Shown here: piece by piece, positions 757 through 63,777 of the stretch
How the letters are laid out: every line of letters starts with the position of its first letter
Position numbering within the stretch: position 1 is the first letter of the stretch
From: a virus
Virus record (IMG/VR): IMGVR_UViG_3300037067_022550
Reading direction: 5' to 3' (one strand)
DNA length: 64,000 nucleotides
Made by a program: the position numbers and the translations under genes
The notes under the pieces: generated by a model
Seen by the model: only the letters and a program-made list of their open reading frames with translations
Database searches by the model: none
Told to the model about the DNA's origin: nothing

Positions 757-1617
757 TTATGTAATGAAAAAATTATAAGGTATTCCATCCCAATGAAACT
801 TAATTTCCAATAACGAATCAACAATATCTGATGTTATATTTTTACCATTGAGTTTTCTATATAAAAATTGTTTAGCTGTTTTTTTTGCATCTTGAAGTAA
901 AGTTACAAACGAATATGCTCTAATTGATCTTCTTCCAACTTTATGATGACAATGTAAAAACCAATCAACAAAAGATTCTAAGTCTTCTTTATAATATTCA
1001 TCTTTAGATTCTTGAAAATTTAATGCAGCTTTTTCTCCGTATAAATACAAAGCAATTTTATCATAAGCTTTTGCAGCATTTTTTTCGTTTGAAAAAACTT
1101 TTCTGTATCTTTGATTACTCATTGTCTTAAAACTTATTTCTGTGCTATAAGAGTCAGCATGTTTGCTTTTAAAAACTCCTACATATTTCTTGTTTTTATT
1201 CCTTCGTTCCCCTTGCCTAGTTCTAGAAGATCTTTCATAAATAATTTGTTTACTTTCTTTTGTTAAGTTTTTCATTCTTTTTATTTGTGATTTTGAAATT
1301 TTTTCTTTTGTTTCTTCATTAAATATTTTCATATGGTCATCCTGGGCAATCATATTATATCCAATACAAGGATTCATGCTGTCATATTTTTGAATATACT
1401 TATACTCTTTAATAATTAAATCATTTAGACTATTAGCTGTATCTATAACATCAAAAGAAAAATTTTCAAAGCCATATTTAAGAAGAGCACGATGAAAAGC
1501 ATAATTAGTGTATTTATAATTTCTTTTGTGACATTTTATTCGTTCTTGTAGTTCCTTAGTAGACATTCCTATGTATATCTTCCCGTTAGTATTATTAGTG
1601 GCCTTATAAATAATCAT
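757..1617 (-). CDS. GIY-YIG homing endonuclease
   Basis: N-terminal GKIYIGMS...R...H...YGFENF motif typical of the GIY-YIG catalytic domain. Confidence 0.85.
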   Translation of the reverse strand: MIIYKATNNTNGKIYIGMSTKELQERIKCHKRNYKYTNYAFHRALLKYGFENFSFDVIDTANSLNDLIIKEYKYIQKYDSMNPCIGYNMIAQDDHMKIFNEETKEKISKSQIKRMKNLTKESKQIIYERSSRTRQGERRNKNKKYVGVFKSKHADSYSTEISFKTMSNQRYRKVFSNEKNAAKAYDKIALYLYGEKAALNFQESKDEYYKEDLESFVDWFLHCHHKVGRRSIRAYSFVTLLQDAKKTAKQFLYRKLNGKNITSDIVDSLLEIKFHWDGIPYNFFIT

Positions 1618-1675: not shown

Positions 1676-2794
1676 TTATTCATTATATTTGAGAGAAAAA
1701 TTAGGATTAATAACTTTAAAACTTACATTGGGATCATCTTTTAAACGTACAACAATCCCTTCTCTCCAAACATCAGGATTCAAAACGCTTTTACCAATAC
1801 TCATGTTTACCAATTCTTTTATAATATCAGGAGTACTGCAATTACAAAGATTAAATGTCCAATTTTTATTAATAACCGGCACCATTTTAAAACCATTTTG
1901 GATGCAAAATATTTCCATTTCTTCAAGGGCATATTTTCTACCGTTATCAATTACATTAAAAACAAGGAAGTCTTGTTCGCCTAATTGATATTTATTCTTT
2001 TGAATTTTTGGTCCAACGCACTCACCTTGTACAACAATGCCAGCTTCTTCTAAATCAAGCAATTTGGCAGCGATATTATATTTTTCAGCCATTGCCCAAT
2101 AACTACTATTGTTAGGTTTACCCAAACGAACATTGCGAGAACAAACCCCAAATATTAGTCTATTAATCCCCCAATGCCTTTTAGTCCCAACAAAGTAAGT
2201 CCCGCTTTGACCATCTACCTTTTCAGTAACATACCATTCGCTTTCAGGACGACTTGTTAGTATTTTAGCACAAGTCTGAATACGTTCTTCATCTGTTTTT
2301 GCAATCCAACTTGGCCATCCTTTGTCTTTTCTGTTCAAATTAAAATAAATAAAACGATACAAAGAAAAATTCATAAGGAATTTATTGATTTTAGATTTAG
2401 AATGAGATTGTTCATCCAATTCCTTTTCTTCTTGCAATTGAGGATCATGCTTCTTAACCCCAAGGATTTCTGTAACATCAGTCCCTTCAACATTCTTGGG
2501 GTTTATAGGAAAATCAGAAGGCAAAATATCCAATGGAAAAACTATTCCCTGAGATATTTGCTTTTTCAATTTGATTGTGCGGATTCTGAACTTACGCTCT
2601 CTAAGAAATTCAAATTCTTGTTTTTCAGGCATAATACTGTCAACTTCACAGTAAACCACAAAATCACCAACCTTAAATTCCCCCTTTTTAGTAACACATT
2701 CCCATCCAAGAACTTGACAAACTTCAATTTTATCCCCCCCTTCAATGGGACGAATACCAATAACCTTTTGGATGCTTGCTAACTTCCTACTCAT
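1676..2794 (-). CDS. ATP-dependent RNA ligase, OB-fold N-terminal domain plus nucleotidyltransferase (Rnl5/DraRnl-like)
   Basis: Motif I TEKVDGQS (KxDG), motif III FLVFNVID, motif IV EGIVVR, motif V SFKVINPNF. N-terminal about 100 aa OB-like domain (MSRKLASIQKV...GDKIEV...GWECVTKKGEFKVGD). Confidence 0.65.
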   Translation of the reverse strand: MSRKLASIQKVIGIRPIEGGDKIEVCQVLGWECVTKKGEFKVGDFVVYCEVDSIMPEKQEFEFLRERKFRIRTIKLKKQISQGIVFPLDILPSDFPINPKNVEGTDVTEILGVKKHDPQLQEEKELDEQSHSKSKINKFLMNFSLYRFIYFNLNRKDKGWPSWIAKTDEERIQTCAKILTSRPESEWYVTEKVDGQSGTYFVGTKRHWGINRLIFGVCSRNVRLGKPNNSSYWAMAEKYNIAAKLLDLEEAGIVVQGECVGPKIQKNKYQLGEQDFLVFNVIDNGRKYALEEMEIFCIQNGFKMVPVINKNWTFNLCNCSTPDIIKELVNMSIGKSVLNPDVWREGIVVRLKDDPNVSFKVINPNFSLKYNE

Positions 2795-5911: not shown

Positions 5912-5993
5912 TGGTGCTCCTGACAGGAATCGAACCTGCATTTTCATTTCCATTATGCACTATCTGTTTAGGAAACAGTGCCAATACAGGAGC
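5912..5993 (-). tRNA. tRNA-like gene, atypical fold (possibly tRNA-Leu(UAA)-like or degenerate)
   Basis: Reverse complement gives a perfect 7-bp acceptor stem (GCTCCTG/CAGGAGC), discriminator A, encoded CCA, and a canonical T arm GCAGG-TTCGATT-CCTGT. The 45-nt middle does not fold into a standard D arm. The best hairpin is TGTTT-CCTAAAC-AGATA extended by GCAC/GTGC, loop triplet TAA. Confidence 0.5.
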
Positions 5994-6618: not shown

Positions 6619-6695
6619 TGGCGTCCCCGGCAGGATTCGAACCTGCGACCCTGGGATTAGAAATCCCATGCTCTATCCAGCTGAGCTACGGGGAC
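6619..6695 (-). tRNA. tRNA-Arg (anticodon TCT), CCA encoded
   Basis: RC = GTCCCCG TA GCTC AGCTGGATA GAGC A TGGGA TTTCTAA TCCCA GGGTC GCAGG TTCGAAT CCTGC CGGGGAC G CCA. Perfect cloverleaf, anticodon loop TT-TCT-AA. Confidence 0.9.
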
Positions 6696-6715: not shown

Positions 6716-7807
6716 TCAATAAACACAACCGCTAGAGCTTGGAATATCGGTAGTGTTAGACGTTGATTCAAGTTTTCCGCTATGTTTGATTAAAGGGTCA
6801 ATTAATTCTATCGCTGTTTCAACAGACATTGAGTTATTCTTTACTGATTTAATTATTTCCAATATTTTTTGTTTGTTATTTGTTTTATCCATTTTGGTCT
6901 CCTTAATGTTCATTTCTTGTTTTGTTTGCCACCCATTATAAATTTTACCATCATAATAAAGAACTTGTTTTTTATATTGTTTGGGATTTTCTGGTCTAGG
7001 TCTAAGTTTACTTTGCAATCCACACATTTGCCTAAAATTAACTGGCATACCCATTACAATAGCATCGTGATTACAACCATGTTTAAAGGGATCATCATTA
7101 AGTCCGTATTGATATTTTAGGATTTTTGCTAGATCAACAAATTTATCTTTGTCCATTTTTAATTCTGCAAATCTAACTTTATCTACCCCCAGATTTTTGG
7201 CAAAAAATATATAGTTATATATTTTAATTAAATTGTCAATTTCTCCATTAATACAATTACAATTTAAACGTGTTTTAACCCCCATTTCTTTTAAAAGTTT
7301 AATTGCTTTTGAAAGGGCAAAATAATCTATATTAATACCGGTTATTTCAGAGTTTCTATGCAGATTATAGTGGTGAATAGAGATATTCATTCCATATAGT
7401 GCACAATTTTCTTTAGTAATTTTGTTTTTTGAATTAGTTGCATTGATTGTGGGTGGTGATATTAAGAAAGTTTTTTTGATAAAATCTTCTGTTATAAGGC
7501 TTCCATTGGTTGTTATCCATACAAAACGGTTATGATGGGTCAAAAATAAACAAAGTTGACGTAGATCCTTATAAAGAGTTGGTTCACCTCCAAGCAAAAT
7601 TATATTTTTTTTATTTGTTTCCAAAATAGCTACTGCTATATCTTTCCAGTCAGCATGTTGAGATGGGTGGAATCCATCTTTTTCTATACACCACATACAT
7701 TTCCCATTACATGTATCAATAAGATTAACTTCCAACCAATCTTGAAAATTGCCTCCACAGAAGTTCAAAGGATTGGGAATATCTGCTGTTATATTTTTGC
7801 TAATCAT
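6716..7807 (-). CDS. radical SAM domain protein
   Basis: CNGKCMWC (Cx3Cx2C) near N-terminus followed by GGEPTLY motif. Confidence 0.7.
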   Translation of the reverse strand: MISKNITADIPNPLNFCGGNFQDWLEVNLIDTCNGKCMWCIEKDGFHPSQHADWKDIAVAILETNKKNIILLGGEPTLYKDLRQLCLFLTHHNRFVWITTNGSLITEDFIKKTFLISPPTINATNSKNKITKENCALYGMNISIHHYNLHRNSEITGINIDYFALSKAIKLLKEMGVKTRLNCNCINGEIDNLIKIYNYIFFAKNLGVDKVRFAELKMDKDKFVDLAKILKYQYGLNDDPFKHGCNHDAIVMGMPVNFRQMCGLQSKLRPRPENPKQYKKQVLYYDGKIYNGWQTKQEMNIKETKMDKTNNKQKILEIIKSVKNNSMSVETAIELIDPLIKHSGKLESTSNTTDIPSSSGCVY

Positions 7808-13349: not shown

Positions 13350-14543
13350 TTAACCATCATCCAGAGCCCTGTCCACCCTTCCATGTATATCACACTCAAT
13401 TTTATAACATTCAGGTAAAACATTTCCATCAGGACGAACCCTTTTATGAATGTTTTCCCAGAGTTTGTCATATTGCTTCTTAAATAAATTAATTAACAAA
13501 GACATGTTTTCTTTATGATTTTTTTGGCACTCAATAGCAAATTCCTTAATTCCTATCCCCCCAGTATAATCATTGGAACAATTGTTTAATATTTGCTCAT
13601 GTTCTATTTCAACCTGATCATATAAGATGTTATGCATACGGTTTATTACCCCACTCATCTTATCTGTAAATTTCCTGAACTCCTCCGGAACTTGTTGCAA
13701 ATACATTGGTGGTATCTTTTTATCTTTAATGTCCCAAGCTTCCCAAAATGCCAAAGGAGTTAAATTAGAAATTATCTTGTGTATACGAAGATATTCATCT
13801 CCCTTGACCTTTACCTTTAAACCAGTAGCAGGAAAAGTAACAACAAATCCCTCCTTTTGAAAAGGTAATGTCTTGCAGTAAACAGACAACTCATCCAAAG
13901 ATTGAAAAGAATTAGATGCCGCACATTGTACACCCAATTCTTTTGAACATTTATTTAAACCATCCGGACCAAGCTCGCTTCCATCTTTATTGTTAATTAC
14001 CCCAGTTAAAACTAACTCTTTCATCTCCCCATAATCAACTACTATTTTGTTTTCAGGATAAATAATCTCAAATAAATAAGTTAAATTGTTGTCTATTTTA
14101 AGATCATTATTTTGTCCTTTAATGCGTTCTTGTATCCAATCAGTAGCCCAAAGAGCTTGTTCAGATGTAAAAGATCCCTTAGTAGATATACGATATTTAC
14201 CACCATACTTAAATAAAATTCCCATAGAACCATCTAATTTATCTAATACATAAAATAAATTATCATTCAGTGTGGAAATAATATTGGTATATCCAGGTAA
14301 AGAATATAAGTCAATCAACTCATTTAAATTGAAAAACTTCTTCCAAGGACGAGCCACTAGTTCACCAGTAACTTTATTAAAAATAATACCGCGGGCATTC
14401 AGTGTAACATTATCCCAAGCTCTATCATATACACATTCTTGCTTATAATGAAATAATACAAGATCATTCCATTCCACAGCCTTAACATATCTATGAGAAT
14501 AAAATTCAGATATGAAAGGAAGATTGGAAAAATTTTGGTTCAT
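13350..14543 (-). CDS. rnlA: RNA ligase 1 (T4 RnlA-like)
   Basis: RGIIFNKV...KFFNLNE, motif I DKLDGSMG, STKGSFTSEQALWA and EGFVV match T4 Rnl1 blocks (RGIMF..KFFNLNE, KEDGSL, KSKGSIKSEQALMA) recalled from memory. Confidence 0.8.
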   Translation of the reverse strand: MNQNFSNLPFISEFYSHRYVKAVEWNDLVLFHYKQECVYDRAWDNVTLNARGIIFNKVTGELVARPWKKFFNLNELIDLYSLPGYTNIISTLNDNLFYVLDKLDGSMGILFKYGGKYRISTKGSFTSEQALWATDWIQERIKGQNNDLKIDNNLTYLFEIIYPENKIVVDYGEMKELVLTGVINNKDGSELGPDGLNKCSKELGVQCAASNSFQSLDELSVYCKTLPFQKEGFVVTFPATGLKVKVKGDEYLRIHKIISNLTPLAFWEAWDIKDKKIPPMYLQQVPEEFRKFTDKMSGVINRMHNILYDQVEIEHEQILNNCSNDYTGGIGIKEFAIECQKNHKENMSLLINLFKKQYDKLWENIHKRVRPDGNVLPECYKIECDIHGRVDRALDDG

Positions 14544-18853: not shown

Positions 18854-19192
18854 TTATTTATTATTTTTATGTTTATTAATATGGTCTTTTTGCCAGAGAG
18901 GTTGAAGGTTTAAAAATCTGCAGCACATATATCTTTCTGATTCTTCCTGTAGGTTAAAGAATGATATTGGTATGATATGGTGAATATTCCAATTATTATT
19001 TTTATAACCGTAATTCTTCCAATTCATACCCCTTAGCCATTGTTTTTCTATGTGTAGTTTTAATTCTTTTTGGGAGCACATAAAGTATTTAATATATTGT
19101 TCTTTACATTGCCCTTTCAACATTCTGCCTACTGATTTGCTAAAAACTGTTGATAGTTTACAATTTATCATATGTTTTTTATGTTTGTCCAT
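18854..19192 (-). CDS. HNH homing endonuclease
   Basis: NWNIHHIIP...NLQPLW..N..K HNH signature. Confidence 0.7.
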   Translation of the reverse strand: MDKHKKHMINCKLSTVFSKSVGRMLKGQCKEQYIKYFMCSQKELKLHIEKQWLRGMNWKNYGYKNNNWNIHHIIPISFFNLQEESERYMCCRFLNLQPLWQKDHINKHKNNK

Positions 19193-20723: not shown

Positions 20724-20760
20724 AGATGTCGTGGTTTTACGCTCCCGTAATAAAAAGGGA
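20709..20760. repeat. site-family copy A (intact): ctacccaacc-ACTAAAGATG-tcgtggttt + TTACG/CGTAA hairpin
   Basis: Left half identical over 20 nt to the flank of the tnpB 3' end (37595-37614). Right half matches the flank beyond the tnpB 5' end (38841-38873) and copy B. Confidence 0.7.
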
Positions 20761-21090
20761 TGTCATATTTATCCTTGTGCATCTTTTTTAGTCTTGTCCA
20801 ACGGTGTAAGTGTAACAAGTTCCTTGCTAATAAATTTTGGCATCCAGCACCTACCCTTGAACCAGTGCGTCTCTGTTTCCTTGCAAAAGCTGGAAAACTC
20901 AAACCACCAATTCATATGGCTACGAGCTTGGTTTTCCGTCAACCCGGAGTCGATCAGACTTGCAATTGTGTCACTGACCGCCTTATCACAACAGTACCGT
21001 TTTGTTTTATTTTTTCTCATGTATATGCTTCCGTGCTTGTAAATTTTAGTTACATATTATTTGGAAGTGGCTTACTATTAGGTTATCCCA
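20730..21090. other. GC-elevated island without credible ORF (candidate structured RNA or foreign DNA)
   Basis: About 42-45% GC vs about 28% surroundings. Only atypical overlapping ORFs on both strands. Confidence 0.3.
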
Positions 21091-21735
21091 TTAATTTGTG
21101 GTGCTTTCGGGCAAGAAGGTATTTCTTATGGAATTATCAGGCATATAATAGATATTATAATCACCTGCATCAAGATTAAAGATATTAGGATATTTTTTTC
21201 TTATTTTATTATACATACCGTTATCGCTATAATTAATGAGTTCTTTTATAGTGAATTGGCAGTTAATTTTATTTTGAAATTCAAGATATTTATCTATAAG
21301 GTCAAAAGTAGTATTTGCTGTAACCAAATGAGTTATCCTTATTTTTGTTAGGGCGGACAAATATTTCAGGTATTCCATATCTTCTTGGATTTTATCGCTT
21401 GAGAATACACATTTATTAATTTTATTCCAAAATGAATCTTTTTTCAATTTTTCTCTAGTGTGAACATCTACTATCATGTTTAAGAAATTAGTAATAGTAA
21501 GAAATTTTTCCCACCAAGTATTATAGGTATCGAATTTATATAAACTATCTCCTCCTCCGGAAACAGATACTTTACCCTTATTTTTATTATTAGACAGGAA
21601 CTGTGTCAATTTAACCCAATCTGTGGGCTGATTGACATTTTCTAGTTCGTGACCTTTCCAAATGCAGTACCAGCAATTTGCCCTGCATCCGAAATTAGTA
21701 ATTACTGAAATATTTGGGCTAGCTGTCCGCAGCAT
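21091..21735 (-). CDS. small radical SAM / 4Fe-4S activating-enzyme-like protein
   Basis: FGCRANCWYC (Cx3Cx2C) near N-terminus; 214 aa. Overlaps upstream rSAM gene by 34 nt. Confidence 0.6.
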   Translation of the reverse strand: MLRTASPNISVITNFGCRANCWYCIWKGHELENVNQPTDWVKLTQFLSNNKNKGKVSVSGGGDSLYKFDTYNTWWEKFLTITNFLNMIVDVHTREKLKKDSFWNKINKCVFSSDKIQEDMEYLKYLSALTKIRITHLVTANTTFDLIDKYLEFQNKINCQFTIKELINYSDNGMYNKIRKKYPNIFNLDAGDYNIYYMPDNSIRNTFLPESTTN

Positions 21736-22682
21736 AATCCTGCCTCCTCACATTTAGCAATGGCGTCTACTACTACTGGAATTCCTTCTTTTTTGAATTC
21801 CCTTTCCATAACCAACAAATCTTCATAGTTATTATAATTAGCAAAAGTTTCTAGATTATTGTCTTTACTATTTAAGGTTTGATTAAGGGGTATCAATTTA
21901 ACCGTGAATTTTTCTCCATTGAGCCCCATTTTTTTAAGTTTGTTAACGGAGACTTCTATGCCTTTCATAACTATAAAGTTAAGAGTAACAGTTCTGTTGG
22001 TTATTTTTGTTTTATTAATTTGTTTGATAATGTCTTCAATAAGCATAACTTCTGAATTTCCAAAAAGTCTTTGTCTTTCCATTTCGTCTGTTGAATTACA
22101 GCTTATTTGAAGGTGCAATCTGCCAGTATAAGTCTTTTCTTTTACTTCTATCACTTTATTCAGGACTTCTTCTGGAGTTATATTGCCCATAATTTTTTTA
22201 GGAAGAATGGTATTAAAGCAAGGAAGCCAATTAAAATGTTTACCAAGGTTGAAAGAAATCATAGGCAAATTGATCATAGCTCCAAGAACATTGTCTAAAT
22301 TATGAGATGGTTCTCCCATTCTTGCAAAGCCTATTTTTACTTTATCAGATTGTAAGACATATGGAGTATTGATGATTAGAAGTTCTATTTGTTCTTCTAT
22401 TTGTCTTTGGCTCAAATTTCCCTTAAATGGCAATTGAGCAACATCACAGAAAAGGCAATCATGAACACATCCTAATTGGGTAGAGACAGTTAGCAACCAT
22501 TTCTTTTCATAAGGGACAAGGTGTTTCCATATTACATGAGGATCTTGGGATTGTCTAACTTCTGCGTGCAGTTTGCCATCCACAGCTACGTCTCTCATTT
22601 CTGTACATTCTATCATATATCCGTCTACTTCTACTAAAAAGATTCTTCCGCTTGGCAAATAGCAAACATTTTTAATTTTCAT
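21702..22682 (-). CDS. RlmN/Cfr-family radical SAM RNA methyltransferase
   Basis: LLTVSTQLGCVHDCLFCDVAQ...NL...ARMGEPSHNLDNVLGAM parallels RlmN CVSSQVGCALECKFCSTAQ...MGMGEPLLNLNNVVPAM. Confidence 0.7.
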   Translation of the reverse strand: MKIKNVCYLPSGRIFLVEVDGYMIECTEMRDVAVDGKLHAEVRQSQDPHVIWKHLVPYEKKWLLTVSTQLGCVHDCLFCDVAQLPFKGNLSQRQIEEQIELLIINTPYVLQSDKVKIGFARMGEPSHNLDNVLGAMINLPMISFNLGKHFNWLPCFNTILPKKIMGNITPEEVLNKVIEVKEKTYTGRLHLQISCNSTDEMERQRLFGNSEVMLIEDIIKQINKTKITNRTVTLNFIVMKGIEVSVNKLKKMGLNGEKFTVKLIPLNQTLNSKDNNLETFANYNNYEDLLVMEREFKKEGIPVVVDAIAKCEEAGLCCGQLAQIFQ

Positions 22683-22770
22683 ATAGTATCTCCTTTTTTG
22701 AAATGGACTATAACATCTTTGATTAAATTGTCAAGTATTATTTATTTTTCTTATATTATACAATTTTTAC

Positions 22771-23235
22771 TTGCAAATACTGTATAATTTAGATATGTTT
22801 TCAGAAGAAAGGAATAATATGATAGACAAATTTGATTTAGATTACAGATTTTTGAGCAATTTTTGGTTGTCTCCTGTGGTATTTGAAGGAGAAGTTTATC
22901 CTTCTTCTGAACATGCATTCCAAGCTGCTAAAAGTTTAGATAAATCTGTAAGAGAACAAATCAAGGGATGTAGTACCCCAGGTAAAGCTAAAAGAATGGG
23001 GGCAAGGGTTGAGTTGCGTTCTGATTGGGAAACTATTAAAGATGATGTTATGCTTGACGTATTAAGAGATAAGTTTAAGGACAATGATTTAAGAGAAAGA
23101 CTAATTGCAACTGGAACTAAAGAGCTAATTGAAGGCAATACTTGGGGAGACAAGTATTGGGGGATGGTTGCTGGCGAAGGAAAAAATATGTTAGGAAAGC
23201 TATTAATGCAAGTTAGAAGTGAAATTAACTCTTAA
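22771..23235 (+). CDS. NADAR (YbiA/DUF1768) domain protein
   Basis: YRFLSNFW...SSEHAFQAAK...GNTWGDKYWG hallmark residues. Confidence 0.75.
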   Translation: MQILYNLDMFSEERNNMIDKFDLDYRFLSNFWLSPVVFEGEVYPSSEHAFQAAKSLDKSVREQIKGCSTPGKAKRMGARVELRSDWETIKDDVMLDVLRDKFKDNDLRERLIATGTKELIEGNTWGDKYWGMVAGEGKNMLGKLLMQVRSEINS

Positions 23236-23246
23236 TCATAGTTTTT

Positions 23247-23480
23247 TTATTTGCATTTCTTACAAAAGCAATCTCCGTCAACAGTTTTAGAACATTTTTT
23301 GCAAACTCTTGATCCACAAGCCGTACAGGTATAATCTTCATTATCTGTCATTTTTTTCTTACAAATTTTACAGGAACTAGATGTATCTTTGCTATCAGAT
23401 GCTTGTTTTCTATCAGATTTAATCCAACCTGTTTTTTTACCTATTAATTCCCATTGTGATTTTGACATGGTAAATTTCAT
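23247..23480 (-). CDS. cysteine-rich zinc-binding protein
   Basis: CKICKK...CTACGSRVCKKC...CFCKKCK. Confidence 0.5.
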   Translation of the reverse strand: MKFTMSKSQWELIGKKTGWIKSDRKQASDSKDTSSSCKICKKKMTDNEDYTCTACGSRVCKKCSKTVDGDCFCKKCK

Positions 23481-23571: not shown

Positions 23572-24123
23572 ATGAATACATTAGTGGTTAATTTATATGG
23601 TGGACCAGGTAGCGGTAAGAGTACAATTATGGCTGGTATATTTTCTGAGCTAAAGTGGATGGGAATTAATTGTGAAATGGGACCAGAATACGCTAAAGAA
23701 AAAGTTTGGGAAGAATCTCTTAAAATATTAAATAATCAAATATATGTTTTTGGTAAACAGCTTCACACTTTAATTAGAGTAGTTGATAAAGTTGATGTTG
23801 TTATAACAGATTCTCCTTTACTATTATCTTTAGTATATGGGGACAACGAATGTGAACATTTCAAGAAATTAGTATTAGATGTTTATGATCGTTTTAATAA
23901 TCTTGACATATTTTTAACTAGAGTAAAAAAATATAATCCTTCTGGTAGATTGCAGACAAAAGAAGAGGCTATTGAAATTGATGTTAAATTAAAGTCTTTA
24001 TTAGTTAAGAATGATATAAATTACACAGAATTTTGTGGATGTAAGGAATCAGTTAAGGATATATGTGATATTATAGTTAGAAAGATTGATAGTTATAAAA
24101 ATATCACAGTAGGTGAGCATTGA
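23572..24123 (+). CDS. P-loop kinase (polynucleotide/nucleoside kinase-like, AAA_28-like)
   Basis: Walker A GGPGSGKST at residues 10-18; 183 aa. Confidence 0.6.
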   Translation: MNTLVVNLYGGPGSGKSTIMAGIFSELKWMGINCEMGPEYAKEKVWEESLKILNNQIYVFGKQLHTLIRVVDKVDVVITDSPLLLSLVYGDNECEHFKKLVLDVYDRFNNLDIFLTRVKKYNPSGRLQTKEEAIEIDVKLKSLLVKNDINYTEFCGCKESVKDICDIIVRKIDSYKNITVGEH

Positions 24124-24185: not shown

Positions 24186-25124
24186 TTAGGAGACTTCAGG
24201 AATAGTTAATCTTTTTATATTAATTTCTTCCATTTTATTGTCATATATTGTGTTAATGGCTGCTGTTTTATTATAAATATCAGAAAGATATTTTTTAATT
24301 ATTTCATCTGTATATCCATTATCAAACACATCTTTAGAGTCTGCAGTTTCAAAAGAAGATTTGGTTGTTGTTAATGTTTTTTCAAAAAGTACTGGACCAA
24401 CTCCTTCTTTCCATTGCCATAGAGATACTTGTCCTTCATCATCAATTTTTGTAAAAGTATCTATTTGTCTTGCCCAAGTACCTGAATTATAGTGATAGTT
24501 ACCTATATTTCCTGGAGTGTGGGTATGACCGTAAATAACTACATCTATATTATTGTTTTGGCGGTATTTTTCTATAGCCTGTATATTATCACATAGTCTT
24601 GAATTAGATCCTATAGATTTAAGTTCGTCTTCTACTGACAAGTTACCTATAAAAGGTCCATTGGACAGATCTTCCAACATTCCTGCAATGATTGTGGCTA
24701 TTTCTCCTATACCTGGATTGTTTTTATTACAATATGGATCAAACTCGTGACCGTGTAAGAAAGCAAATTTGCGTCCTCCTATTGTTTGCACAAATGGTTT
24801 GCTCATTCTTTTAAAAAATGGGTGAGGCATTTCTATAATATTGTTATCTATATAAACAAAGTTCATTAAGGTATTATCGTGATTTCCCAAAACATAAGTT
24901 GACTGCATAGCGTCGAGTTTATCTAATAGACCATGATACTGATTAATTGAAGAACTGAAATTAACTTGCCACCAATCAAAAAGGTCTCCTAGTATATATA
25001 ATTTAGCTTGTTGTTGTTCTACCCATTTAAGGAAGTCATAGAAGCGTATTTCTCTACCTTTTACATTAAAATTATCACGTGTTCCGCGATCTGCAGCATG
25101 TACATCACTTATGCAATAAATCAT
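24186..25124 (-). CDS. calcineurin-like metallophosphoesterase
   Basis: DVHA...GDLFD...GNHD...GHTHTPG metallophosphatase motifs. Confidence 0.75.
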   Translation of the reverse strand: MIYCISDVHAADRGTRDNFNVKGREIRFYDFLKWVEQQQAKLYILGDLFDWWQVNFSSSINQYHGLLDKLDAMQSTYVLGNHDNTLMNFVYIDNNIIEMPHPFFKRMSKPFVQTIGGRKFAFLHGHEFDPYCNKNNPGIGEIATIIAGMLEDLSNGPFIGNLSVEDELKSIGSNSRLCDNIQAIEKYRQNNNIDVVIYGHTHTPGNIGNYHYNSGTWARQIDTFTKIDDEGQVSLWQWKEGVGPVLFEKTLTTTKSSFETADSKDVFDNGYTDEIIKKYLSDIYNKTAAINTIYDNKMEEINIKRLTIPEVS

Positions 25125-37579: not shown

Positions 37580-37760
37580 TTAAAAACCTGTCAACTACCC
37601 AACCACTAAAGATGGTTAGGCTTGCTCAACCAACGAACTGGGAGCAATAGGTGGATTGACTGCCGCCCGACTTGGATGGCCTGTAGCGTCCAAGTAGTTT
37701 TTAAGTATGTTGCGAGAAGCATTAAGATCAGCATGGATGCAAAGTCCACAGTGACCACAA
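37580..37760 (-). ncRNA. putative TnpB omega-RNA/reRNA region (3' end of tnpB through the right end)
   Basis: Inference from IS200/IS605 biology. GC-richer 3' segment of tnpB with hairpin CTTGGA/TCCAAG at 37671-37694. Confidence 0.3.
37595..37614. repeat. site-family half C: ctacccaacc-ACTAAAGATG abutting the tnpB stop codon
   Basis: 20/20 identity to 20709-20728. Confidence 0.7.
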
Positions 37761-38850
37761 ACATAGACAGATTGAGACTTGCGGTTGGACTTGAGAACTA
37801 CTCCGCACTTGCTACACTTTTGGGAAGTGTAACGAGCTGGAACATACTCAACCCCTATTCCCTTTGCTTTGGCTTTGTAGGAAAGAAACTGTTCAAACTG
37901 GAAGAAGTTCCATTTGTTCAAGTCCTTCCTTTGAGCCTTTCTCAATCTGGAGTTTCTGATTCCTGTGAGTTTCTCCAGTATGACCGTGCTTCCTGCTTCA
38001 AGCGAATTGACTATCTTCTTGGCAATGCAGTGGTTAACATCTCGTCTAAACCGTCTCTCTTTAGAACTTACTTTTCTAAAGTGTCTTTTGCCGGAATGTT
38101 TTTTCGCCTGAAGACTACTTCTGAGTTTTTCATACCTTTTGCTAACCTGCTTAATCCTCCTTCCGTTAAAGAACTTGTTTTCGGACGTTACTGCAAGATT
38201 GTTGATTCCCCTGTCTATTCCGACGTACTTGCTGGAATGAGGAATATCGTTTATTTCTTTCTCAAACACAACATGCAAAAAAACCTTGCCTTTCTTGACA
38301 AACAAATCAGCCGAAGCGTGTTTCCAGTCCAAATACCTTTCAAAGTATTTCGGAATAATAAGGTTGAACTTCTTTCTTCCTTCCGTAGTTTTGATGGAGA
38401 CGGTTCTGGACTCAAGGAAGAGAGTGTAAGAGTTGACATCATAACGAATAGATGTTTGCTTGGATTGCGGAAGAGAACCTTTCTTGCCTTTGTTCGTAAT
38501 TTCTTTAACAGATTTCAGGGTTTCAGTAGCCTTCATTCTAGCAGAAATAGCAAGTTGGGATGGTAGAGTAGTTCGGCAAGTGTTGTATGTTTTGTGATGG
38601 AGAGAGACACCGTTGGTATCTTTAGACTCAAATCCTACTTTACAGATGTAGTTGAAAGCATCCGTATAAGCTTTAATGGTTGGAAGAAACTCCTTGTCGG
38701 AGCAGTCAACAACCAGTTTTGCTGTTTGAGTCAGTTTCATATATTTAATTCATTCTGCAATTATTTTTCATTCCCTTCTTTTATTTTCAACTATTTTTCA
38801 ACAATGCAAACAGAAAGTGGAACGGCAATTCATCCCCGACACTAAAGATG
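37605..38850 (-). mobile_element. TnpB-only IS200/IS605-family (IS1341-like) element inserted into a site-family copy; ACTAAAGATG present at both junctions
   Basis: tnpB ORF plus about 100 nt of 5' leader, bounded by direct 10-mers at 37605-37614 and 38841-38850. No tnpA. Confidence 0.6.
37616..38740 (-). CDS. tnpB: TnpB (OrfB) RNA-guided nuclease, IS200/IS605 family
   Basis: RuvC-I GIDRGINN, RuvC-II ...ILEKLTGI, zinc finger CSKCG...CGHCG, RuvC-III IHADLNASRNI. Confidence 0.9.
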   Translation of the reverse strand: MKLTQTAKLVVDCSDKEFLPTIKAYTDAFNYICKVGFESKDTNGVSLHHKTYNTCRTTLPSQLAISARMKATETLKSVKEITNKGKKGSLPQSKQTSIRYDVNSYTLFLESRTVSIKTTEGRKKFNLIIPKYFERYLDWKHASADLFVKKGKVFLHVVFEKEINDIPHSSKYVGIDRGINNLAVTSENKFFNGRRIKQVSKRYEKLRSSLQAKKHSGKRHFRKVSSKERRFRRDVNHCIAKKIVNSLEAGSTVILEKLTGIRNSRLRKAQRKDLNKWNFFQFEQFLSYKAKAKGIGVEYVPARYTSQKCSKCGVVLKSNRKSQSVYVCGHCGLCIHADLNASRNILKNYLDATGHPSRAAVNPPIAPSSLVEQA

Positions 38851-42678: not shown

Positions 42679-42880
42679 AAAATGGCTTAGTGAAACTCCT
42701 CCATGTTGTGAAATTTGTGGGAAACTATTTAATTCTACTGATAATTTTTTCTACGATTTTAAAACATGGAACGGTTCTTGGGGAATTGGATGTGAAACAT
42801 GCTTTAAAGAAAATGAAGGCCAACTCGGGAGCGGTTGTGGTCAAAAATATGATTTAAAAACATTGGAGAAAATATTATGA
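42665..42880 (+). CDS. cysteine-rich zinc-finger protein
   Basis: CCEICGK...CETCF...GCGQ. Confidence 0.45.
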   Translation: MKTNEKWLSETPPCCEICGKLFNSTDNFFYDFKTWNGSWGIGCETCFKENEGQLGSGCGQKYDLKTLEKIL

Positions 42881-43653
42881 AAAATATGATTGATAGAATA
42901 TCTTTATGGATTGCAGAAAAGGTTATTAGTTCTAAATGTAAGGGTGTTTTATACGGACTTAGCGGCGGAATTGACTCTGCAGTAGTGGCTGCTCTTTGTA
43001 GCAAAAGTTTAAGAAGGAACCAACATTTAGGAGTTATAATGCCATGCGGTTCTCAAAAAGAAGACCAGGAAGATGCCATTTTAGTTGCAAGTCATTTAAA
43101 TATTCAAACAGATGTTTTTGATCTTGGAAATACTTACGAAAGTTTATCTCCCAAAAGCTTGTTAAAGTATAACAATCAATTAGCAAATGCCAACCTGAAA
43201 GCAAGATTAAGAATGGCAACCCTATATTATTTTGCCAATACTCTTTCTTATATGGTTGTTGGAACTGGCAACAAATCAGAAATAATGGTGGGTTATGGCA
43301 CTAAATATGGTGATGAAGGTGTTGATATTCAACCTATTGGCGATCTTTACAAAACTCAAGTTTTTGAAATGGCAAAAGTTCTTAATCTTCCAGACAAGAT
43401 TATTAACAAAATTCCATCAGCTGGTCTTTGGCCAGGTCAGAGCGATGAAGAAGAAATGGGAATAACCTATAAAGAACTAGACAGAATTCTGATGGCAATT
43501 GAAAAAAATCACGGATGGGCAATAAATGACAATGAGGCTTCATTTTGTATAGATGAAAAAATATCATTAGAAGATTACCGCAAAGTTAGGAAAATGGTTG
43601 ATAATTCAGATCACAAGAGAAAAATGCCACCAATCTATCATATATGGTCATAA
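42877..43653 (+). CDS. nadE: NH3-dependent NAD+ synthetase
   Basis: SGGIDS PP-loop; GYGTKYGDEGVDIQPIGDLYKTQV and PSAGLWPGQSDEEEMGITYKELD parallel E. coli NadE blocks. Confidence 0.85.
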   Translation: MKNMIDRISLWIAEKVISSKCKGVLYGLSGGIDSAVVAALCSKSLRRNQHLGVIMPCGSQKEDQEDAILVASHLNIQTDVFDLGNTYESLSPKSLLKYNNQLANANLKARLRMATLYYFANTLSYMVVGTGNKSEIMVGYGTKYGDEGVDIQPIGDLYKTQVFEMAKVLNLPDKIINKIPSAGLWPGQSDEEEMGITYKELDRILMAIEKNHGWAINDNEASFCIDEKISLEDYRKVRKMVDNSDHKRKMPPIYHIWS

Positions 43654-44263: not shown

Positions 44264-44893
44264 ATGAAAAAAATATGCATAACTGGTGGAATTGCTTGTG
44301 GTAAAAGTGAAGTTGGAAAAATGATAGAAAGTTACGGATTTCCTGTTTTAGACACAGATGTTGTTGCTCATAGAATATTGGAATCTGATTTAATGTTGAC
44401 CAGAGTTTTGTTTTCTGAATTTGGGAAGAGAATAATAGATCAAAAAAACGGTTCTATAAACAGAAAAGAACTTAGTAAGATTGTATTTGAGAATAAGAAA
44501 TCTTTGGATTTATTAAACGGTTTAATTCATCCAAAAATACTTTGTTATACCCATCTATGGACTAACTTAATGGAAAAAATTTATCCCAAACAGCTTTTTT
44601 GTTTTTGTATAATTCCGTTAGTGTTTGAAACCAAAGATCAAGATAAATGGGATAGAATAATTTGTGTTTATTCAAATAAATCAATTCAAAAAAGTAGAAT
44701 TAAAATGAGAGGTTTAAACGATGAAGAAATAGCACAAAGGATAAATTCCCAAATAGATATTGAAGAAAAAGTAAAAAACTCTCACTTAATTATAGAAAAT
44801 AATAATGGGACAATTGAAGATTTAGACAAAAAAGTTATTGATGTAATTAATATATTAAAACAATGGCATGACTGTAATTATATGGATTATTAA
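44264..44893 (+). CDS. coaE: dephospho-CoA kinase
   Basis: MKKICITGGIACGKSEVGK...VLDTD matches CoaE N-terminus (GxxGSGKS + D-x-D). Confidence 0.8.
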   Translation: MKKICITGGIACGKSEVGKMIESYGFPVLDTDVVAHRILESDLMLTRVLFSEFGKRIIDQKNGSINRKELSKIVFENKKSLDLLNGLIHPKILCYTHLWTNLMEKIYPKQLFCFCIIPLVFETKDQDKWDRIICVYSNKSIQKSRIKMRGLNDEEIAQRINSQIDIEEKVKNSHLIIENNNGTIEDLDKKVIDVINILKQWHDCNYMDY

Positions 44894-55475: not shown

Positions 55476-56738
55476 ATGCAAGTAATTCAATCAAATAAAC
55501 CAAACAAAGTAATCTACTCTTGGTGCCCAAATATTGATCAAAATGCTCTTGACCAAGCCAAGCTACTTGTTGAACAACTCTTTGTTTTTAGGCACATGTC
55601 TCTTATGCCAGATACACATAAGGGGACAGTAATGCCAATTGGAGGGGTATTAGCCACTAAAGATGTTATTCTTCCTTTTTGCGTCGGTTCAGATGGAGGC
55701 TGTGGAATGTGTGCTGTAAAAACTTCTTTGAAGATTGAAGACTTCAGAGAAGGACAGAAGGAAGAACTTTTGCATAGTATGGAAAGAAGCGTTCCTGTAG
55801 GTTTTCAGCATAATGACGAAAAAAGAATGGGGGAAATAAGGCAAAAATATATTCAAAAAATTGAGTATTTGCTTAAAAAAAACGAAGCAGTGTTAAGAGC
55901 TTCAACACGAATATTTCAAAACGTGCCAAAAACTATTGAAGAACAGGTTGGAACCCTTGGTGGAGGCAACCATTTCTGTGAGATACAATATGATCAAGAT
56001 GAAAACATTTGGATAATGATTCACTCAGGATCTAGAAATATAGGAACTAAAATTTGCGATACTTTCAATGATATCGCAATTGATTTAAATAAGAAATATT
56101 ATTCTCAAGTTCCAGAATCAATCCCATTTCTTCCTACCAACACAATGGAAGCAAAAGAATATCTTGCTTATATGAATTTTGCGTTAGACTTTGCTTTTCT
56201 TAACAGGCAAATTATGATGGATTATATTAAAAAGGATATTTCTTTTTCATTCAAACATATGCAAGTTGATTTTGAAAAAATGATTAATATTCACCACAAT
56301 TATGCTTCTCTTGAAAACCATTTCGGAGAAAACGTATGGATTCATCGTAAGGGGGCAACACTAGCCACTAAAGGAACCATTGGGATCATACCTGGGGCAG
56401 CTGATAAAAATTCAGCTTCATATATAGTTCGGGGGAAGGGTAATCCTGACTCTTATAATTCTTGTTCTCATGGTGCTGGCAGAGTAATGGGTAGAAAAGC
56501 GTTTAACCAAATATATAATACTCCAGAAAAAATGAGGGAAATTGTATCTTCCCTAGACGGAATTACTCATAGCAAGTTTAAGAAAGAACAATCTTACAAG
56601 AAAAATAAAGAAACGGGATTGCTTGATGTTTCTGAAGCTGGTGCTGCATATAAAAATGTTTTCTCAGTTATGAAGAACCAGGAAGATTTAGTTGAAATTG
56701 TTACAACCCTTAAAACCTATATTAATATGAAGGGTTAA
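55476..56738 (+). CDS. rtcB: RtcB RNA ligase (3'-phosphate/5'-OH)
   Basis: MPDTHKGTVMPIGGVLATKDVILPFCVGSDGGCGM and downstream His-rich blocks typical of RtcB. Confidence 0.9.
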   Translation: MQVIQSNKPNKVIYSWCPNIDQNALDQAKLLVEQLFVFRHMSLMPDTHKGTVMPIGGVLATKDVILPFCVGSDGGCGMCAVKTSLKIEDFREGQKEELLHSMERSVPVGFQHNDEKRMGEIRQKYIQKIEYLLKKNEAVLRASTRIFQNVPKTIEEQVGTLGGGNHFCEIQYDQDENIWIMIHSGSRNIGTKICDTFNDIAIDLNKKYYSQVPESIPFLPTNTMEAKEYLAYMNFALDFAFLNRQIMMDYIKKDISFSFKHMQVDFEKMINIHHNYASLENHFGENVWIHRKGATLATKGTIGIIPGAADKNSASYIVRGKGNPDSYNSCSHGAGRVMGRKAFNQIYNTPEKMREIVSSLDGITHSKFKKEQSYKKNKETGLLDVSEAGAAYKNVFSVMKNQEDLVEIVTTLKTYINMKG

Positions 56739-59031: not shown

Positions 59032-59907
59032 ATGAGTTACATGCATATAAATCAACTTTATAAAAGCAGAGAAATAATGCTATTTAAAGAGTGCTATGCT
59101 CTTGAAAAAATACATGGAACTAGTAGCCACACATCTTACAAGAATGGTAAAATTTCATATTTTTCTGGTGGTGAAAGTTATGAAAATTTTATTAAAATTT
59201 TCGATGAAAAGATTTTGTTGCCAGCTTTTTGGAAAATAGGAATAAATGATATAACTGTTTACGGCGAAGCTTATGGTGGATCTCAACAGGGTATGTCGCA
59301 TACATATGGAAAAGAAACAAGATTTATAGTTTTTGACATAAAAATTTATGAACATTTTATTTCTGTTCCGGAAGCAGAAGCAATAGCTAAAGAATTGGGG
59401 CTTGAATTTGTTCACTACAGAAAGATTCCAACAACTATAGAAGCACTTGATGCAGAGATGTATTTACCATCAGTTCAAGCAGAAAGAAACGGCTGTGGAA
59501 TTGATAAAAAAAGAGAGGGAATCGTTCTTCGTCCATTAGTAGAAATGATTAAAAGTACTGGGGAAAGAATTATTTCTAAACACAAAAGACCAGATTTTAA
59601 AGAAACTAAAAATGAAAGAAAATTAAATGTTGATCCTGAAAAGTTAAAGATTTTGGAAGACGCAGAAGCAATAGCTGTTGAATGGGTCACTCCCATGCGT
59701 TTGGAACATATCTTACAAAAATTTCCAGACAAAAAAATAGAACAATGTGGAGAAATTGCAAAAGCTATGATTGAAGATGTTATTAGAGAAGGAAAAGGAG
59801 AAATAGTTGATTCAAAAGAAGCAAGAAAAGCCATCAGTAAAAAAGCCATTGAACTTTTCAAAGAGAAGATAAATAATCCATTGAAACAAAAGGAAATTGT
59901 CAGATGA
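59032..59907 (+). CDS. RNA ligase 2 family (T4 Rnl2-like adenylyltransferase domain)
   Basis: Motif I LEKIHGTSS (T4 Rnl2 REKIHGTN), motif IV EGIVLRP (EGYVLKP), motif V RIISKHKR. Confidence 0.85.
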   Translation: MSYMHINQLYKSREIMLFKECYALEKIHGTSSHTSYKNGKISYFSGGESYENFIKIFDEKILLPAFWKIGINDITVYGEAYGGSQQGMSHTYGKETRFIVFDIKIYEHFISVPEAEAIAKELGLEFVHYRKIPTTIEALDAEMYLPSVQAERNGCGIDKKREGIVLRPLVEMIKSTGERIISKHKRPDFKETKNERKLNVDPEKLKILEDAEAIAVEWVTPMRLEHILQKFPDKKIEQCGEIAKAMIEDVIREGKGEIVDSKEARKAISKKAIELFKEKINNPLKQKEIVR

Positions 59908-61802: not shown

Positions 61803-62972
61803 ATGAATCAAATACCTCAAAGTTTATTAGACACAGACCTTTACACCTTTAGTGTTCAAAATGCCATTCTTGACCATTTCTATGATGCCAGGGCTGAATA
61901 TAGATTTGTCAATAGAGGTTATCATAAAATAACCCCCCAACTTATAGAAGCCCTTAAGTTTCAAGTATATAATGTTTTTCCGTCAATTTATTTAACAGAT
62001 TACGAATACCACTGGCTAAAATCCACCTGCAAACATCTTAAACCATGGTACTTTGAATATTTAAAAAACTATAGGTTTAATCCAGAAGAGGTAAAAATAG
62101 AACAAGATGGAAATGAAACAAAAATAAGTGTTATTGGTCCTTGGCACTCCACTATTATGTGGGAGGTCCCTTTGCTTTATACCATCTCGCAATTATATCA
62201 TGAAATCGTTGATAATAATTGGTCAATGGAAGGTCAAGTTGAAAAAATAAATTTAAAGGGGAAAAAACTTTCTAATAATGATTGTTTTACAGCAGATATG
62301 TCTACTCGCAGACGCAGAAATTTTAATTCTCAAAAGATAGTAGTAGAAGAATTAAAAAAATACCCTTGTTTTAATGGAACATCAAATACTTATCTTGCTA
62401 TGTTAAACAGCGTAAAACCAATTGGGACAATGAGTCACCAGTGGATATCTGCTATGCAAGCTCTTAGAAGTATCCGTTATTGCAATCATTATGCCATGGA
62501 CTATTGGGTTAAGACTTTTGGAACATCTTTAGGGATTATGCTGACTGATACAGTAACTAGTGATTGCTTCTTAAAAAGTTTCAGTCCCTATTTTGCTAAT
62601 CTTTTTAGTGGCACAAGATGTGATTCTGGAATAGAACTTGAATATGTTGATAAAATGATAAAACATTATAAATCTCTTAATATAAACCCCAATCACAAAT
62701 GTATAATTTTTAGCAACTCCTTAAATGTAGATAAGGCAATAAAAATTAGGAAATATTGCGAAGGAAAAATAGGATGTTCTTTTGGCATTGGCAATCACTT
62801 GGGAAATGATTTTGAAAACAGTCCTGCCCCAAACATGGTAATTAAGTTGTGGTCTATTAATGGAATTCCAGTTGTTAAATTATCTGACGACCTTGGTAAA
62901 TTAATTGGGGATAAAGATGCTGTCAAAGTTACAAAATGGGAGTGTTGTGGGACTACTATAGAAGTAGATTAG
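61803..62972 (+). CDS. pncB: nicotinate phosphoribosyltransferase
   Basis: N-terminal SLLDTDLYTFSVQNAILDHFYD matches E. coli PncB [21 protein letters not shown]. Confidence 0.8.
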   Translation: MNQIPQSLLDTDLYTFSVQNAILDHFYDARAEYRFVNRGYHKITPQLIEALKFQVYNVFPSIYLTDYEYHWLKSTCKHLKPWYFEYLKNYRFNPEEVKIEQDGNETKISVIGPWHSTIMWEVPLLYTISQLYHEIVDNNWSMEGQVEKINLKGKKLSNNDCFTADMSTRRRRNFNSQKIVVEELKKYPCFNGTSNTYLAMLNSVKPIGTMSHQWISAMQALRSIRYCNHYAMDYWVKTFGTSLGIMLTDTVTSDCFLKSFSPYFANLFSGTRCDSGIELEYVDKMIKHYKSLNINPNHKCIIFSNSLNVDKAIKIRKYCEGKIGCSFGIGNHLGNDFENSPAPNMVIKLWSINGIPVVKLSDDLGKLIGDKDAVKVTKWECCGTTIEVD

Positions 62973-63207: not shown

Positions 63208-63777
63208 ATGAGTAAGGCATTGATTATAGTAGATATGCAAAAAGATTTTGTTGACGGTTCACTTCCAGTACCAAAGGCAATAGAAATAATACCAGTTATT
63301 TATTGGATTGTTGGTAATGTAAAGTATGATTGTATAATAGAAACGCTTGATTGGCATCCTGAAAATCATATTAGTTTTAAACAGTGGGGAGTACACTGTT
63401 TGCAAAATTTTTCGGGGGCAAAATCTGTTTTAAATTTCAAATTTGAAGATTGTTCTTCCTATTATTCTACTTATAGAGGGGTTATTCGCAAGGGAACTAA
63501 CGTTGATGTAGATTCTTATTCTGGATTTTTTGATAACCTTTATATTTCAGGAACTGGTTTAGAAGAAAAATTGAGAATGGCAGATGAAGGAAGAATAAAT
63601 GAAATTGATATAGTTGGTTTAGCAACAGATTATTGTGTTAAATTTACGGCAATAGATGCAGCCAAATTAGGATACAAAACCAATGTAATTTCTTTTGCTT
63701 GCAGAGGAGTAGATTTAACAACTACAGCTAAAGCAATTGAAGAAATGAAAAATAAATACAACATTAATGTTATATAA
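63208..63777 (+). CDS. pncA: nicotinamidase/isochorismatase-family hydrolase
   Basis: ALIIVDMQKDFVDGSLPV N-terminal block and catalytic-Cys block GLATDYCVKFTAIDA. Confidence 0.8.
   Translation: MSKALIIVDMQKDFVDGSLPVPKAIEIIPVIYWIVGNVKYDCIIETLDWHPENHISFKQWGVHCLQNFSGAKSVLNFKFEDCSSYYSTYRGVIRKGTNVDVDSYSGFFDNLYISGTGLEEKLRMADEGRINEIDIVGLATDYCVKFTAIDAAKLGYKTNVISFACRGVDLTTTAKAIEEMKNKYNINVI

Follow-up and report, generated by a model that had tools for sequence, protein, structure and literature searches.

An orphan NADAR-family gene on an AT-rich phage contig as a candidate eraser of nucleic-acid ADP-ribosylation

The virus record IMGVR_UViG_3300037067_022550 of IMG/VR, of which a stretch of 64,000 nucleotides was analysed here (the window), carries a gene for a small protein of the NADAR family. 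We found that this protein is a bare NADAR domain with all of its catalytic residues in place, that its gene is maintained by purifying selection and has no toxin partner, and that it is homologous to a phage NADAR already known to neutralise the toxin DarT1. Our favoured explanation, to which we assign a probability of about 0.55, is that the protein acts as a nucleic-acid base de-ADP-ribosylase and serves the phage as a counter-defence against a guanine-specific ADP-ribosyltransferase (ART) toxin of the DarT1 kind. A preliminary description of the locus, made from the sequence alone, had arrived at a similar hypothesis, which is in essence what has been published on how the family works.

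Gene, fold and active site

The preliminary description had placed the gene at 22771-23235. This open reading frame (ORF) on the plus strand was confirmed, and the three motifs quoted from it were all found (YRFLSNFW at residues 9-16, SSEHAFQAAK at 29-38 and GNTWGDKYWG at 106-115 of the product), but the start was misplaced. TTG 22771 is simply where the open frame first permits a start, and the true start is almost certainly ATG 22819, because several observations converge on it. An identical protein in public data (P0001) is 138 amino acids (aa) long and was called from this ATG; the 79% identical protein of a sister phage likewise opens with MIDKF; and the 16 codons (48 nt) upstream of the ATG are broken in the sister phage by indels and a stop codon. 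Furthermore, a Shine-Dalgarno-like motif precedes the ATG, and TTG 22771 sits just upstream of a conserved promoter-like element. The features of the gene are as follows.

22819..23235, plus strand: NADAR-family protein gene, 138 aa plus stop, with the corrected start
22781..22788, plus strand: TGTATAAT, extended -10 promoter-like element 30 nt 5' of the ATG, conserved in the sister phage
22807..22813, plus strand: Shine-Dalgarno-like GAAAGGA, 5 nt 5' of the ATG, its AAGGAA core retained in the sister phage
22909..22911, plus strand: codon of E31, the catalytic Glu (E43 of PnNADAR, E36 of AdfN-T4)
22930..22932, plus strand: codon of K38 (K50 of PnNADAR, K43 of AdfN-T4)
23131..23133, plus strand: codon of E105, the subfamily signature residue (E125 of PnNADAR, E167 of SCO5665)
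23149..23160, plus strand: codons of D111-K-Y-W114 in the GDKYWG motif (D130 and W133 of PnNADAR)

The NADAR/YbiA-like domain that the preliminary description had read from the motifs was borne out by profile and sequence matches far beyond chance. Pfam PF08719 (NADAR, DUF1768) matched 129 of the 138 residues with 94.9 bits (gathering score 35.1; E=8.2e-27), PHROG gave phrog_1017 (E=4.8e-43), and the NCBIfam model TIGR02464 (riboflavin biosynthesis intermediates N-glycosidase) scored 89.2 bits against a cutoff of 73.7. Among proteins of known structure, the sequence matched Escherichia coli YbiA (2B3W, E=3.3e-26) and the NADAR of Phytophthora nicotianae, PnNADAR (8BAU, E=5e-9).

An AlphaFold2 model of the 138-aa protein, built on 95 homologues, reached a mean predicted local distance difference test (pLDDT) score of 97.2 and a predicted template modelling score of 0.90. 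The preliminary description had proposed a structure-based test of homology, and this agreed with the sequence matches. In a Foldseek comparison with the PDB the best match was YbiA 2B3W, with a template modelling (TM) score of 0.87 and 42% identity, followed by ADP-ribose-bound PnNADAR 8BAU (TM 0.81); the DarT1-associated Geobacter NADAR 8BAT matched more weakly (TM 0.49). NADARs were the sole significant matches, and no other fold in the PDB appeared at E<0.001. The model shows the alpha-helical core with flanking small beta-hairpins that characterises the YbiA-like fold, and the protein consists of this single core domain.

Residues E31, K38, E105, D111 and W114 align with E43, K50, E125, D130 and W133 of PnNADAR, which touch the distal ribose and the pyrophosphate of ADP-ribose, D130 and W133 contacting the pyrophosphate (PMC11543638). 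E31, K38, E105 and D111 were invariant among the 95 homologues, and W114 was kept in at least 90% of them. In the T4 protein AdfN the mutants E36A and K43A are both inactive (PMC11257639), and SCO5665 cannot function without its counterpart of E105, nor can DarG1 of E. coli C7, where the residue is Asp (PMC11543638, PMC12945103). The "NADAR" and "YbiA" families carry Glu at this signature position, DarG1 carries Asp, and the phage NADARs of the T4 type have His (PMC11543638, PMC12945103). By its residues, the protein is a Glu-type NADAR with an intact catalytic set. Comparison with the sister phage gave a ratio of non-synonymous to synonymous substitution rates (dN/dS) of 0.31, that is, purifying selection, somewhat more relaxed than in the neighbouring genes (0.12-0.23).

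Relation to characterised NADARs and predicted activity

Homologues were found by tblastn in 744 of 50,697 phage records, all at less than 60% identity, in phages of Staphylococcus, Streptomyces, Vibrio, Salmonella, Bacillus and Escherichia, and in at least 151 further stretches of IMG/VR. T5-like phages were among the best matches, including Escherichia phage HildyBeyeler (Bas33) with its gene bas33_0070. Johannesman et al. reported that the NADARs of Bas32 and Bas33 are identical and correspond to AdfN^Bas32 (PMC11257639, PMC11825919), and we equate bas33_0070 (QXV80081.1) with AdfN^Bas32 because the record MZ501074 has only one NADAR-like place. The window protein is 54% identical to it over the full length (E=3e-48). 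AdfN^Bas32 neutralises DarT1 in E. coli and rescues phages sensitive to DarTG1 but not those sensitive to DarTG2 (PMC11257639, PMC11825919). The action of a phage NADAR against a DarT-type toxin, which the preliminary description had proposed for this gene, has thus been published for T4 gp30.3 (AdfN), AdfN^Bas32 and AdfN^Bas60 (PMC11825919), and the more general link to reversal of nucleic-acid ADP-ribosylation is likewise supported by homology and by the literature.

No ART, DarT (DUF4433), macrodomain or Nudix domain was detected by Pfam in the approximately 123 ORFs of the window, and PADLOC found no DarT or DarG among the NADAR gene and nine neighbours. This makes the gene an orphan as Johannesman et al. 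use the term. A phage-borne DarTG-like system was considered and rejected, the one PADLOC match being weak (candidate PDC-M42C).

In a neighbour-joining tree (without bootstrap) AdfN^Bas32 fell into one clade with the window protein and the metagenomic relatives of the latter, which left out E. coli YbiA, PnNADAR and T4 gp30.3. Scores against TIGR02464 gave a different grouping, with the sister protein (87.9 bits) and UCB24 (90.6) above the cutoff alongside the window protein, AdfN^Bas32 below it (66.8) and T4 gp30.3 without a match. In sequence, the window protein is intermediate between AdfN^Bas32 and housekeeping YbiA.

With AdfN^Bas32 the window protein shares its phage-borne, stand-alone state without a cognate toxin, a length of about 140-150 aa, the Glu-type active site and the clade in the tree. 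AdfN^Bas32, however, comes from another phage lineage, its gene in Bas33 lies among nucleotide-metabolism genes, it has a 4-residue insertion of its own ahead of the catalytic Glu plus a C-terminal tail, and it differs in missing the TIGR02464 cutoff and in its isoelectric point (pI 9.0, against 5.9 for the window protein). E. coli YbiA (2B3W; COG3236) has the same minimal core fold without extension and the same catalytic Glu, Lys, Glu, Asp and Trp, and the window protein clears the cutoff of the YbiA-type hidden Markov model. YbiA, in contrast, is encoded by a chromosomal housekeeping and SOS-operon gene tied to hydrolysis of riboflavin intermediates, whereas the window gene is phage-borne and its product groups with AdfN^Bas32; it stands alone at 138 aa, and we found neither a fusion to or association with a riboflavin gene nor a housekeeping chromosomal context.

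The remaining characterised members are more distant. AdfN^T4 (gp30.3), which has a proven anti-DarTG1 role (PMC11257639), is also an orphan phage NADAR of the core domain only that keeps the catalytic Glu and Lys, but it is only 22% identical, has LKH (His) where the window protein has E105 (LIEGN), its in vivo activity is tied to T-even modified DNA, and it is unable to remove ADP-ribose from cytosine (PMC12945103). DarG1 (BC4488 clade; 8BAT) belongs to the same superfamily and hydrolyses guanine-N2-ADP-ribose, but it has the signature Asp, an N-terminal beta-beta-alpha extension, proposed by Schuller et al. to be a surface for binding single-stranded DNA (PMC11543638), and an adjoining DarT1, none of which the window protein has. 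PnNADAR (8BAU) is of the Glu type and stands alone, and all of its ADP-ribose-contacting residues align; it is, however, eukaryotic and only about 29% identical, and its fold extensions and insertion are missing in the window protein. Three identities were accordingly rejected: DarG1 (no DarT, Glu instead of Asp, no extension), a T4-type AdfN (Glu instead of His at the signature position) and the DS-32 NADAR anti-phage protein (NF053876, 47.1 bits against a cutoff of 240). By the features that could be compared, the protein belongs with the orphan phage NADARs (AdfN in the broad sense), of the AdfN^Bas32 type; its sequence also fits the YbiA type, but its genomic context does not.

The chemistry that we propose is suggested by the conserved active site and by the behaviour of the NADARs tested so far, all of which, across all four families, strip ADP-ribose from guanine in DNA and RNA in vitro (PMC11125620, PMC11833690, PMC12945103). 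The single-domain N-glycohydrolase, acting without a cognate toxin, would bind ADP-ribose linked to a nucleobase through the exocyclic amine, while W114 and basic residues would keep the pyrophosphate in place. E31, K38, E105 and D111 would then hydrolyse the bond between the ribose and the base (C1'' to the exocyclic amine), releasing free ADP-ribose and the unmodified base. The target would be N2 of guanine and possibly also cytosine, the latter being plausible because the protein is of the Glu type and Glu-type NADARs remove ADP-ribose from cytosine as well (PMC12945103). Expressed from its own putative sigma70-like extended -10 promoter, the enzyme would remove the ADP-ribose that a host ART toxin of the DarT1 kind had attached to phage nucleic acid, and so allow replication and transcription to continue.

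Promoters, neighbours and wider gene content

The gene forms a single-gene unit between genes on the opposite strand, with a divergent pair of radical-SAM genes upstream and a convergent Cys-rich gene downstream. The immediate surroundings contain the following.

21091..21735, minus strand: radical-SAM gene, 214 aa, divergent from the NADAR gene
21702..22682, minus strand: radical-SAM gene, 326 aa, weakly RlmN/Cfr-like (67 bits against a cutoff of 290), phrog_24834
22755..22762, minus strand: TGTATAAT element, a sequence motif, divergent and facing the radical-SAM operon
23247..23480, minus strand: Cys-rich gene, 77 aa, with four CxxC, zinc-ribbon-like, weak C1/RING matches
23572..24123, plus strand: AAA_28 P-loop nucleoside/nucleotide-kinase-like gene with its own TGTATAAT element
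24186..25124, minus strand: neighbouring gene for a calcineurin-like metallophosphoesterase
12046, 19274, 19941, 22755 (minus strand), 22781, 23545, 27097 (minus strand) and 40737 (minus strand): examples of TGTATAAT sites, an over-represented octamer

The intergenic region 22683-22818 thus holds putative promoters arranged back to back. The octamer TGTATAAT occurs 16 times in the window, where 6.6±2.5 copies are expected and none of 100 shuffles reached 16, and half of the copies (8/16) are correctly oriented and 19-72 nt ahead of a start codon. Genes preceded by it include the NADAR gene, the radical-SAM operon, the kinase gene, orf176 and orf239, and these accessory genes probably share one sigma70-like promoter class. 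They may be expressed early.

The preliminary description had located the gene between radical-SAM RNA-modification genes and a kinase/phosphoesterase pair. The position is correct, although the 77-aa Cys-rich gene also intervenes, and the radical-SAM assignment holds, while the RNA-modification label depends on the weak similarity to RlmN/Cfr. The two radical-SAM genes overlap by 34 nt and are 83-88% identical to those of the sister phage, with strong purifying selection (dN/dS 0.12-0.14); the only homologues from cultured phages belonged to Bacteroides phage Versailles, at 29%, and Vibrio phage D479, at 27%, and no NADAR lies near the homologue of Bacteroides phage Versailles. Between orf239 and the radical-SAM operon is a segment of about 370 bp (20724..21090) with a GC content of 43% on a background of about 30% and an 83-aa ORF on the minus strand (20769..21020); it had no significant match in Rfam or among PDB sequences, and the sister phage has about 90 bp at this place.

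The 77-aa Cys-rich gene adjoins the NADAR gene in the sister phage as well (85% identity in L004/L005, dN/dS 0.23); it was found nowhere else among the loci examined, and we saw no sign of functional coupling to NADAR. The AAA_28 kinase is missing from the sister phage, in which the Cys-rich gene is followed directly by the phosphoesterase gene. The model of the kinase (pLDDT 92.7) gave roughly equal matches, none above TM 0.67, to thymidylate kinase, deoxynucleoside kinases and the kinase domain of NadR, and PDB sequence searches were uninformative on the substrate of either the kinase or the phosphoesterase. The kinase was automatically named nicotinamide riboside kinase by the Joint Genome Institute, and an identical kinase is encoded on another contig, whose length is up to 263,965 bp. 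An identical NADAR is likewise encoded on a contig of 90,995 bp.

To follow synteny, 16 proteins of the window were compared by tblastn with 85 NADAR-bearing loci. The sister phage (L003-L005) has the order 214-aa radical-SAM gene, 326-aa radical-SAM gene, NADAR gene, 77-aa gene and phosphoesterase gene, whereas in 80 other viral contigs none of these neighbours lay within 10 kb of the NADAR gene. A NADAR/radical-SAM/kinase module was therefore rejected, the neighbours being common to the sister phage only; neither synteny nor the domain searches support any coupling to the radical-SAM or kinase/phosphoesterase genes. The phrase "anti-defence neighbourhood" of the preliminary description was an assumption, as PADLOC and Pfam detected no known defence or anti-defence partner nearby.

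When the genes up to 4 kb from members of this NADAR clade were clustered across 82 viral loci, no dominant partner emerged. Genes for an RNA ligase, an AAA_33 kinase, a metallophosphoesterase, NadE and a Nampt-like protein each recurred in 4-6 of the 82 loci, with at least one of them in 12, and the loci concerned were mostly of one phage lineage (L032, L049, L051, L053). This pattern fits the loose "guild" described by Iyer et al. (PMC9503650), not a functional module.

By its content, the window resembles a piece of a large phage genome rich in AT. It has about 30% GC, a coding density of 92% and mostly small ORFs, along with homing endonucleases, tRNA genes and PHROG-specific families; megablast of positions 12000-36000 against the 50,697 phage records (INPHARED) gave no match. 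Other genes recognised in the window were the following.

757..1617 (minus strand), 18854..19192 (minus strand) and a GIY-YIG/NUMOD ORF within 40-64 kb: homing-endonuclease-type genes (GIY-YIG, HNH-like, NUMOD3/I-HmuI-like)
1676..2794, minus strand: RNA ligase of the PHA02142-OB plus RNA_ligase type (phrog_968, E=4e-69)
5915..5993, minus strand: tRNA-Arg(TCT), found by ARAGORN and Rfam
6619..6695, minus strand: second, marginal tRNA-like match, by Rfam only (32.1 bits, gathering score 29)
13350..14543, minus strand: RNA ligase, T4 Rnl1-like (PF09511)
37616..38740, minus strand: TnpB / IS605 OrfB-like gene (PF07282, PF01385)
42877..43653, plus strand: NadE (E=1.5e-80)
44264..44893, plus strand: CoaE dephospho-CoA kinase
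55476..56738, plus strand: RNA ligase, RtcB (E=5e-94)
59032..59907, plus strand: RNA ligase, Rnl2-like (phrog_548)
61803..62972, plus strand: PncB/NAPRTase (E=3e-55)
63208..63777, plus strand: PncA-like isochorismatase (E=1.6e-15)

Four RNA ligase genes within 64 kb represent an unusually heavy investment in the sealing of RNA ends. Immediately upstream of the tRNA matches lies a further radical-SAM gene (6716..7807). Genes of Preiss-Handler NAD+ salvage are present, with no NadD recognised in the window. Clusters of pncB, nadD and nadE have been reported in gut jumbo phages (PMC11662467), and the NAD+ route of the window differs from the published NARP1-3 phage pathways.

Weighing the possible functions

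Several observations count against a counter-defence role directed at a DarT1-like toxin. The window protein passes the TIGR02464 cutoff that AdfN^Bas32 misses, and it is 42-46% identical to YbiA of E. coli, a protein that shows activity in vitro yet failed to rescue cells from DarT1 toxicity (PMC11125620); in one study T4 gp30.3 likewise gave no rescue from DarT1 in cells despite its activity in vitro (PMC11125620). Since the protein is TIGR02464-positive and YbiA failed in cells, efficacy against DarT1 in vivo is not to be assumed. The protein also has no basic N-terminal extension like the presumed single-stranded DNA binder of DarG1, its model beginning at the core fold. Its pI of 5.9, where the AdfNs and YbiA have about 9, points weakly in the same direction; as an argument against nucleic-acid binding, however, low pI was discarded, since acidic proteins make up 35% of the clade and the pI of the sister protein is 8.5. 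As to the host, a search for the TnpB protein in 185,579 species genomes returned distant relatives only (32-56%; archaeal, actinobacterial and planctomycete metagenome-assembled genomes), from which no host was inferred. Finally, the analysis covers 64 kb of the phage genome.

A rival reading is an enzyme that works mainly on RNA, removing base-linked ADP-ribose (on G or C) from tRNA, rRNA or mRNA in answer to an RNA-targeting ART defence other than DarT1; it would then belong to the unusually large RNA-repair equipment of this phage. NADARs do reverse ADP-ribosylation of guanine on RNA (PMC11833690), E. coli YbiA is seemingly more efficient on RNA than on DNA carrying ADP-ribosylated guanine, and also more efficient on cytidine (PMC11833690, PMC12945103), and the window protein is both Glu-type and positive for the YbiA model. 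The window further offers four RNA ligases, RlmN/Cfr-like radical-SAM genes and the kinase/phosphoesterase pair; in 11 of the 82 viral loci, genes for an RNA ligase, an AAA_33 kinase or a metallophosphoesterase recur no more than 4 kb from a NADAR gene of this clade, and an association of NADARs with RNA repair was noted by Iyer et al. (PMC9503650). The ligase genes of the window, however, are 8-36 kb away in other transcription units, and the recurring RNA-repair neighbours stem mostly from the single lineage mentioned above. Moreover, the ADP-ribosylated phosphate ends of Tpt1-type repair are not a NADAR substrate (PMC11833690), and an anti-phage system from nature that modifies G or C of RNA with ADP-ribose is not named in the cited literature, CmdT targeting adenine. 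We regard RNA-directed repair as improbable.

About equally improbable is a small-molecule N-glycosidase, acting on reactive riboflavin intermediates as YbiA/COG3236 of E. coli and plants does, or on a soluble metabolite of ADP-ribose or NAD for NAD+ salvage or the destruction of an immune signal. The TIGR02464 score and YbiA as the best structural match fit such an activity, as do the NadE, PncB and PncA-like genes of the window and the NadE and Nampt genes within 4 kb of the NADAR clade in 6 of the 82 loci; Iyer et al. have proposed low-molecular-weight ADP-ribose substrates for phage NADARs (PMC9503650). YbiA, however, also hydrolyses ADP-ribosylated G and C, so that a TIGR02464 match is compatible with nucleic-acid activity (PMC11125620, PMC12945103). 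The Pfam scan of the window revealed no riboflavin gene (ribA, ribD and others), and a distance of 20-40 kb separates the NADAR gene from the NAD genes, which form a plus-strand block with no linkage to it. No NADAR in the cited literature has been shown to act on a soluble signal derived from ADP-ribose, and the tidying of ADP-ribose metabolites, which the preliminary description had offered as a second possibility, has no experimental precedent there for any NADAR.

A more specific combination appears slightly less probable again: an eraser of RNA-base ADP-ribosylation (G and/or C, in tRNA or rRNA), not directed at DarT1, that would team up with the four RNA ligases, the kinase/phosphoesterase pair and NAD+ salvage against an undescribed defence that consumes NAD+ to ADP-ribosylate RNA. 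Self-immunity, in which the NADAR would shield phage or host nucleic acids from an ART of the phage itself, is very improbable: a YbiA-type NADAR is the antitoxin of the ART YarT in myxobacteria (PMC11125620), in T4 the gene 30.3 and alt are no more than about 3 kb apart, and co-expression with ARTs in T4-like phages was noted by Iyer et al. (PMC9503650), but no ART-family domain was found in the approximately 123 ORFs of the window, nor by PADLOC in the ten nearest genes, and the conserved adjacent 77-aa gene is zinc-ribbon-like and by its sequence not of an ART fold.

Removal of DarT1-type ADP-ribosylation from phage nucleic acid remains the explanation that we favour. Orphan phage NADARs, which reverse the ADP-ribosylation of DNA by DarT1, were recently established as a class of enzymatic counter-defence, and the gene described here adds a member from an uncharacterised lineage of apparently large AT-rich phages; otherwise it is an expected accessory gene that raises no new question. 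Its sequence, midway between AdfN^Bas32 and YbiA, makes it a reasonable test case for what separates NADARs that counter DarT1 in vivo from those active in vitro only, and also for the action of Glu-type phage NADARs on cytosine- or RNA-linked ADP-ribose.

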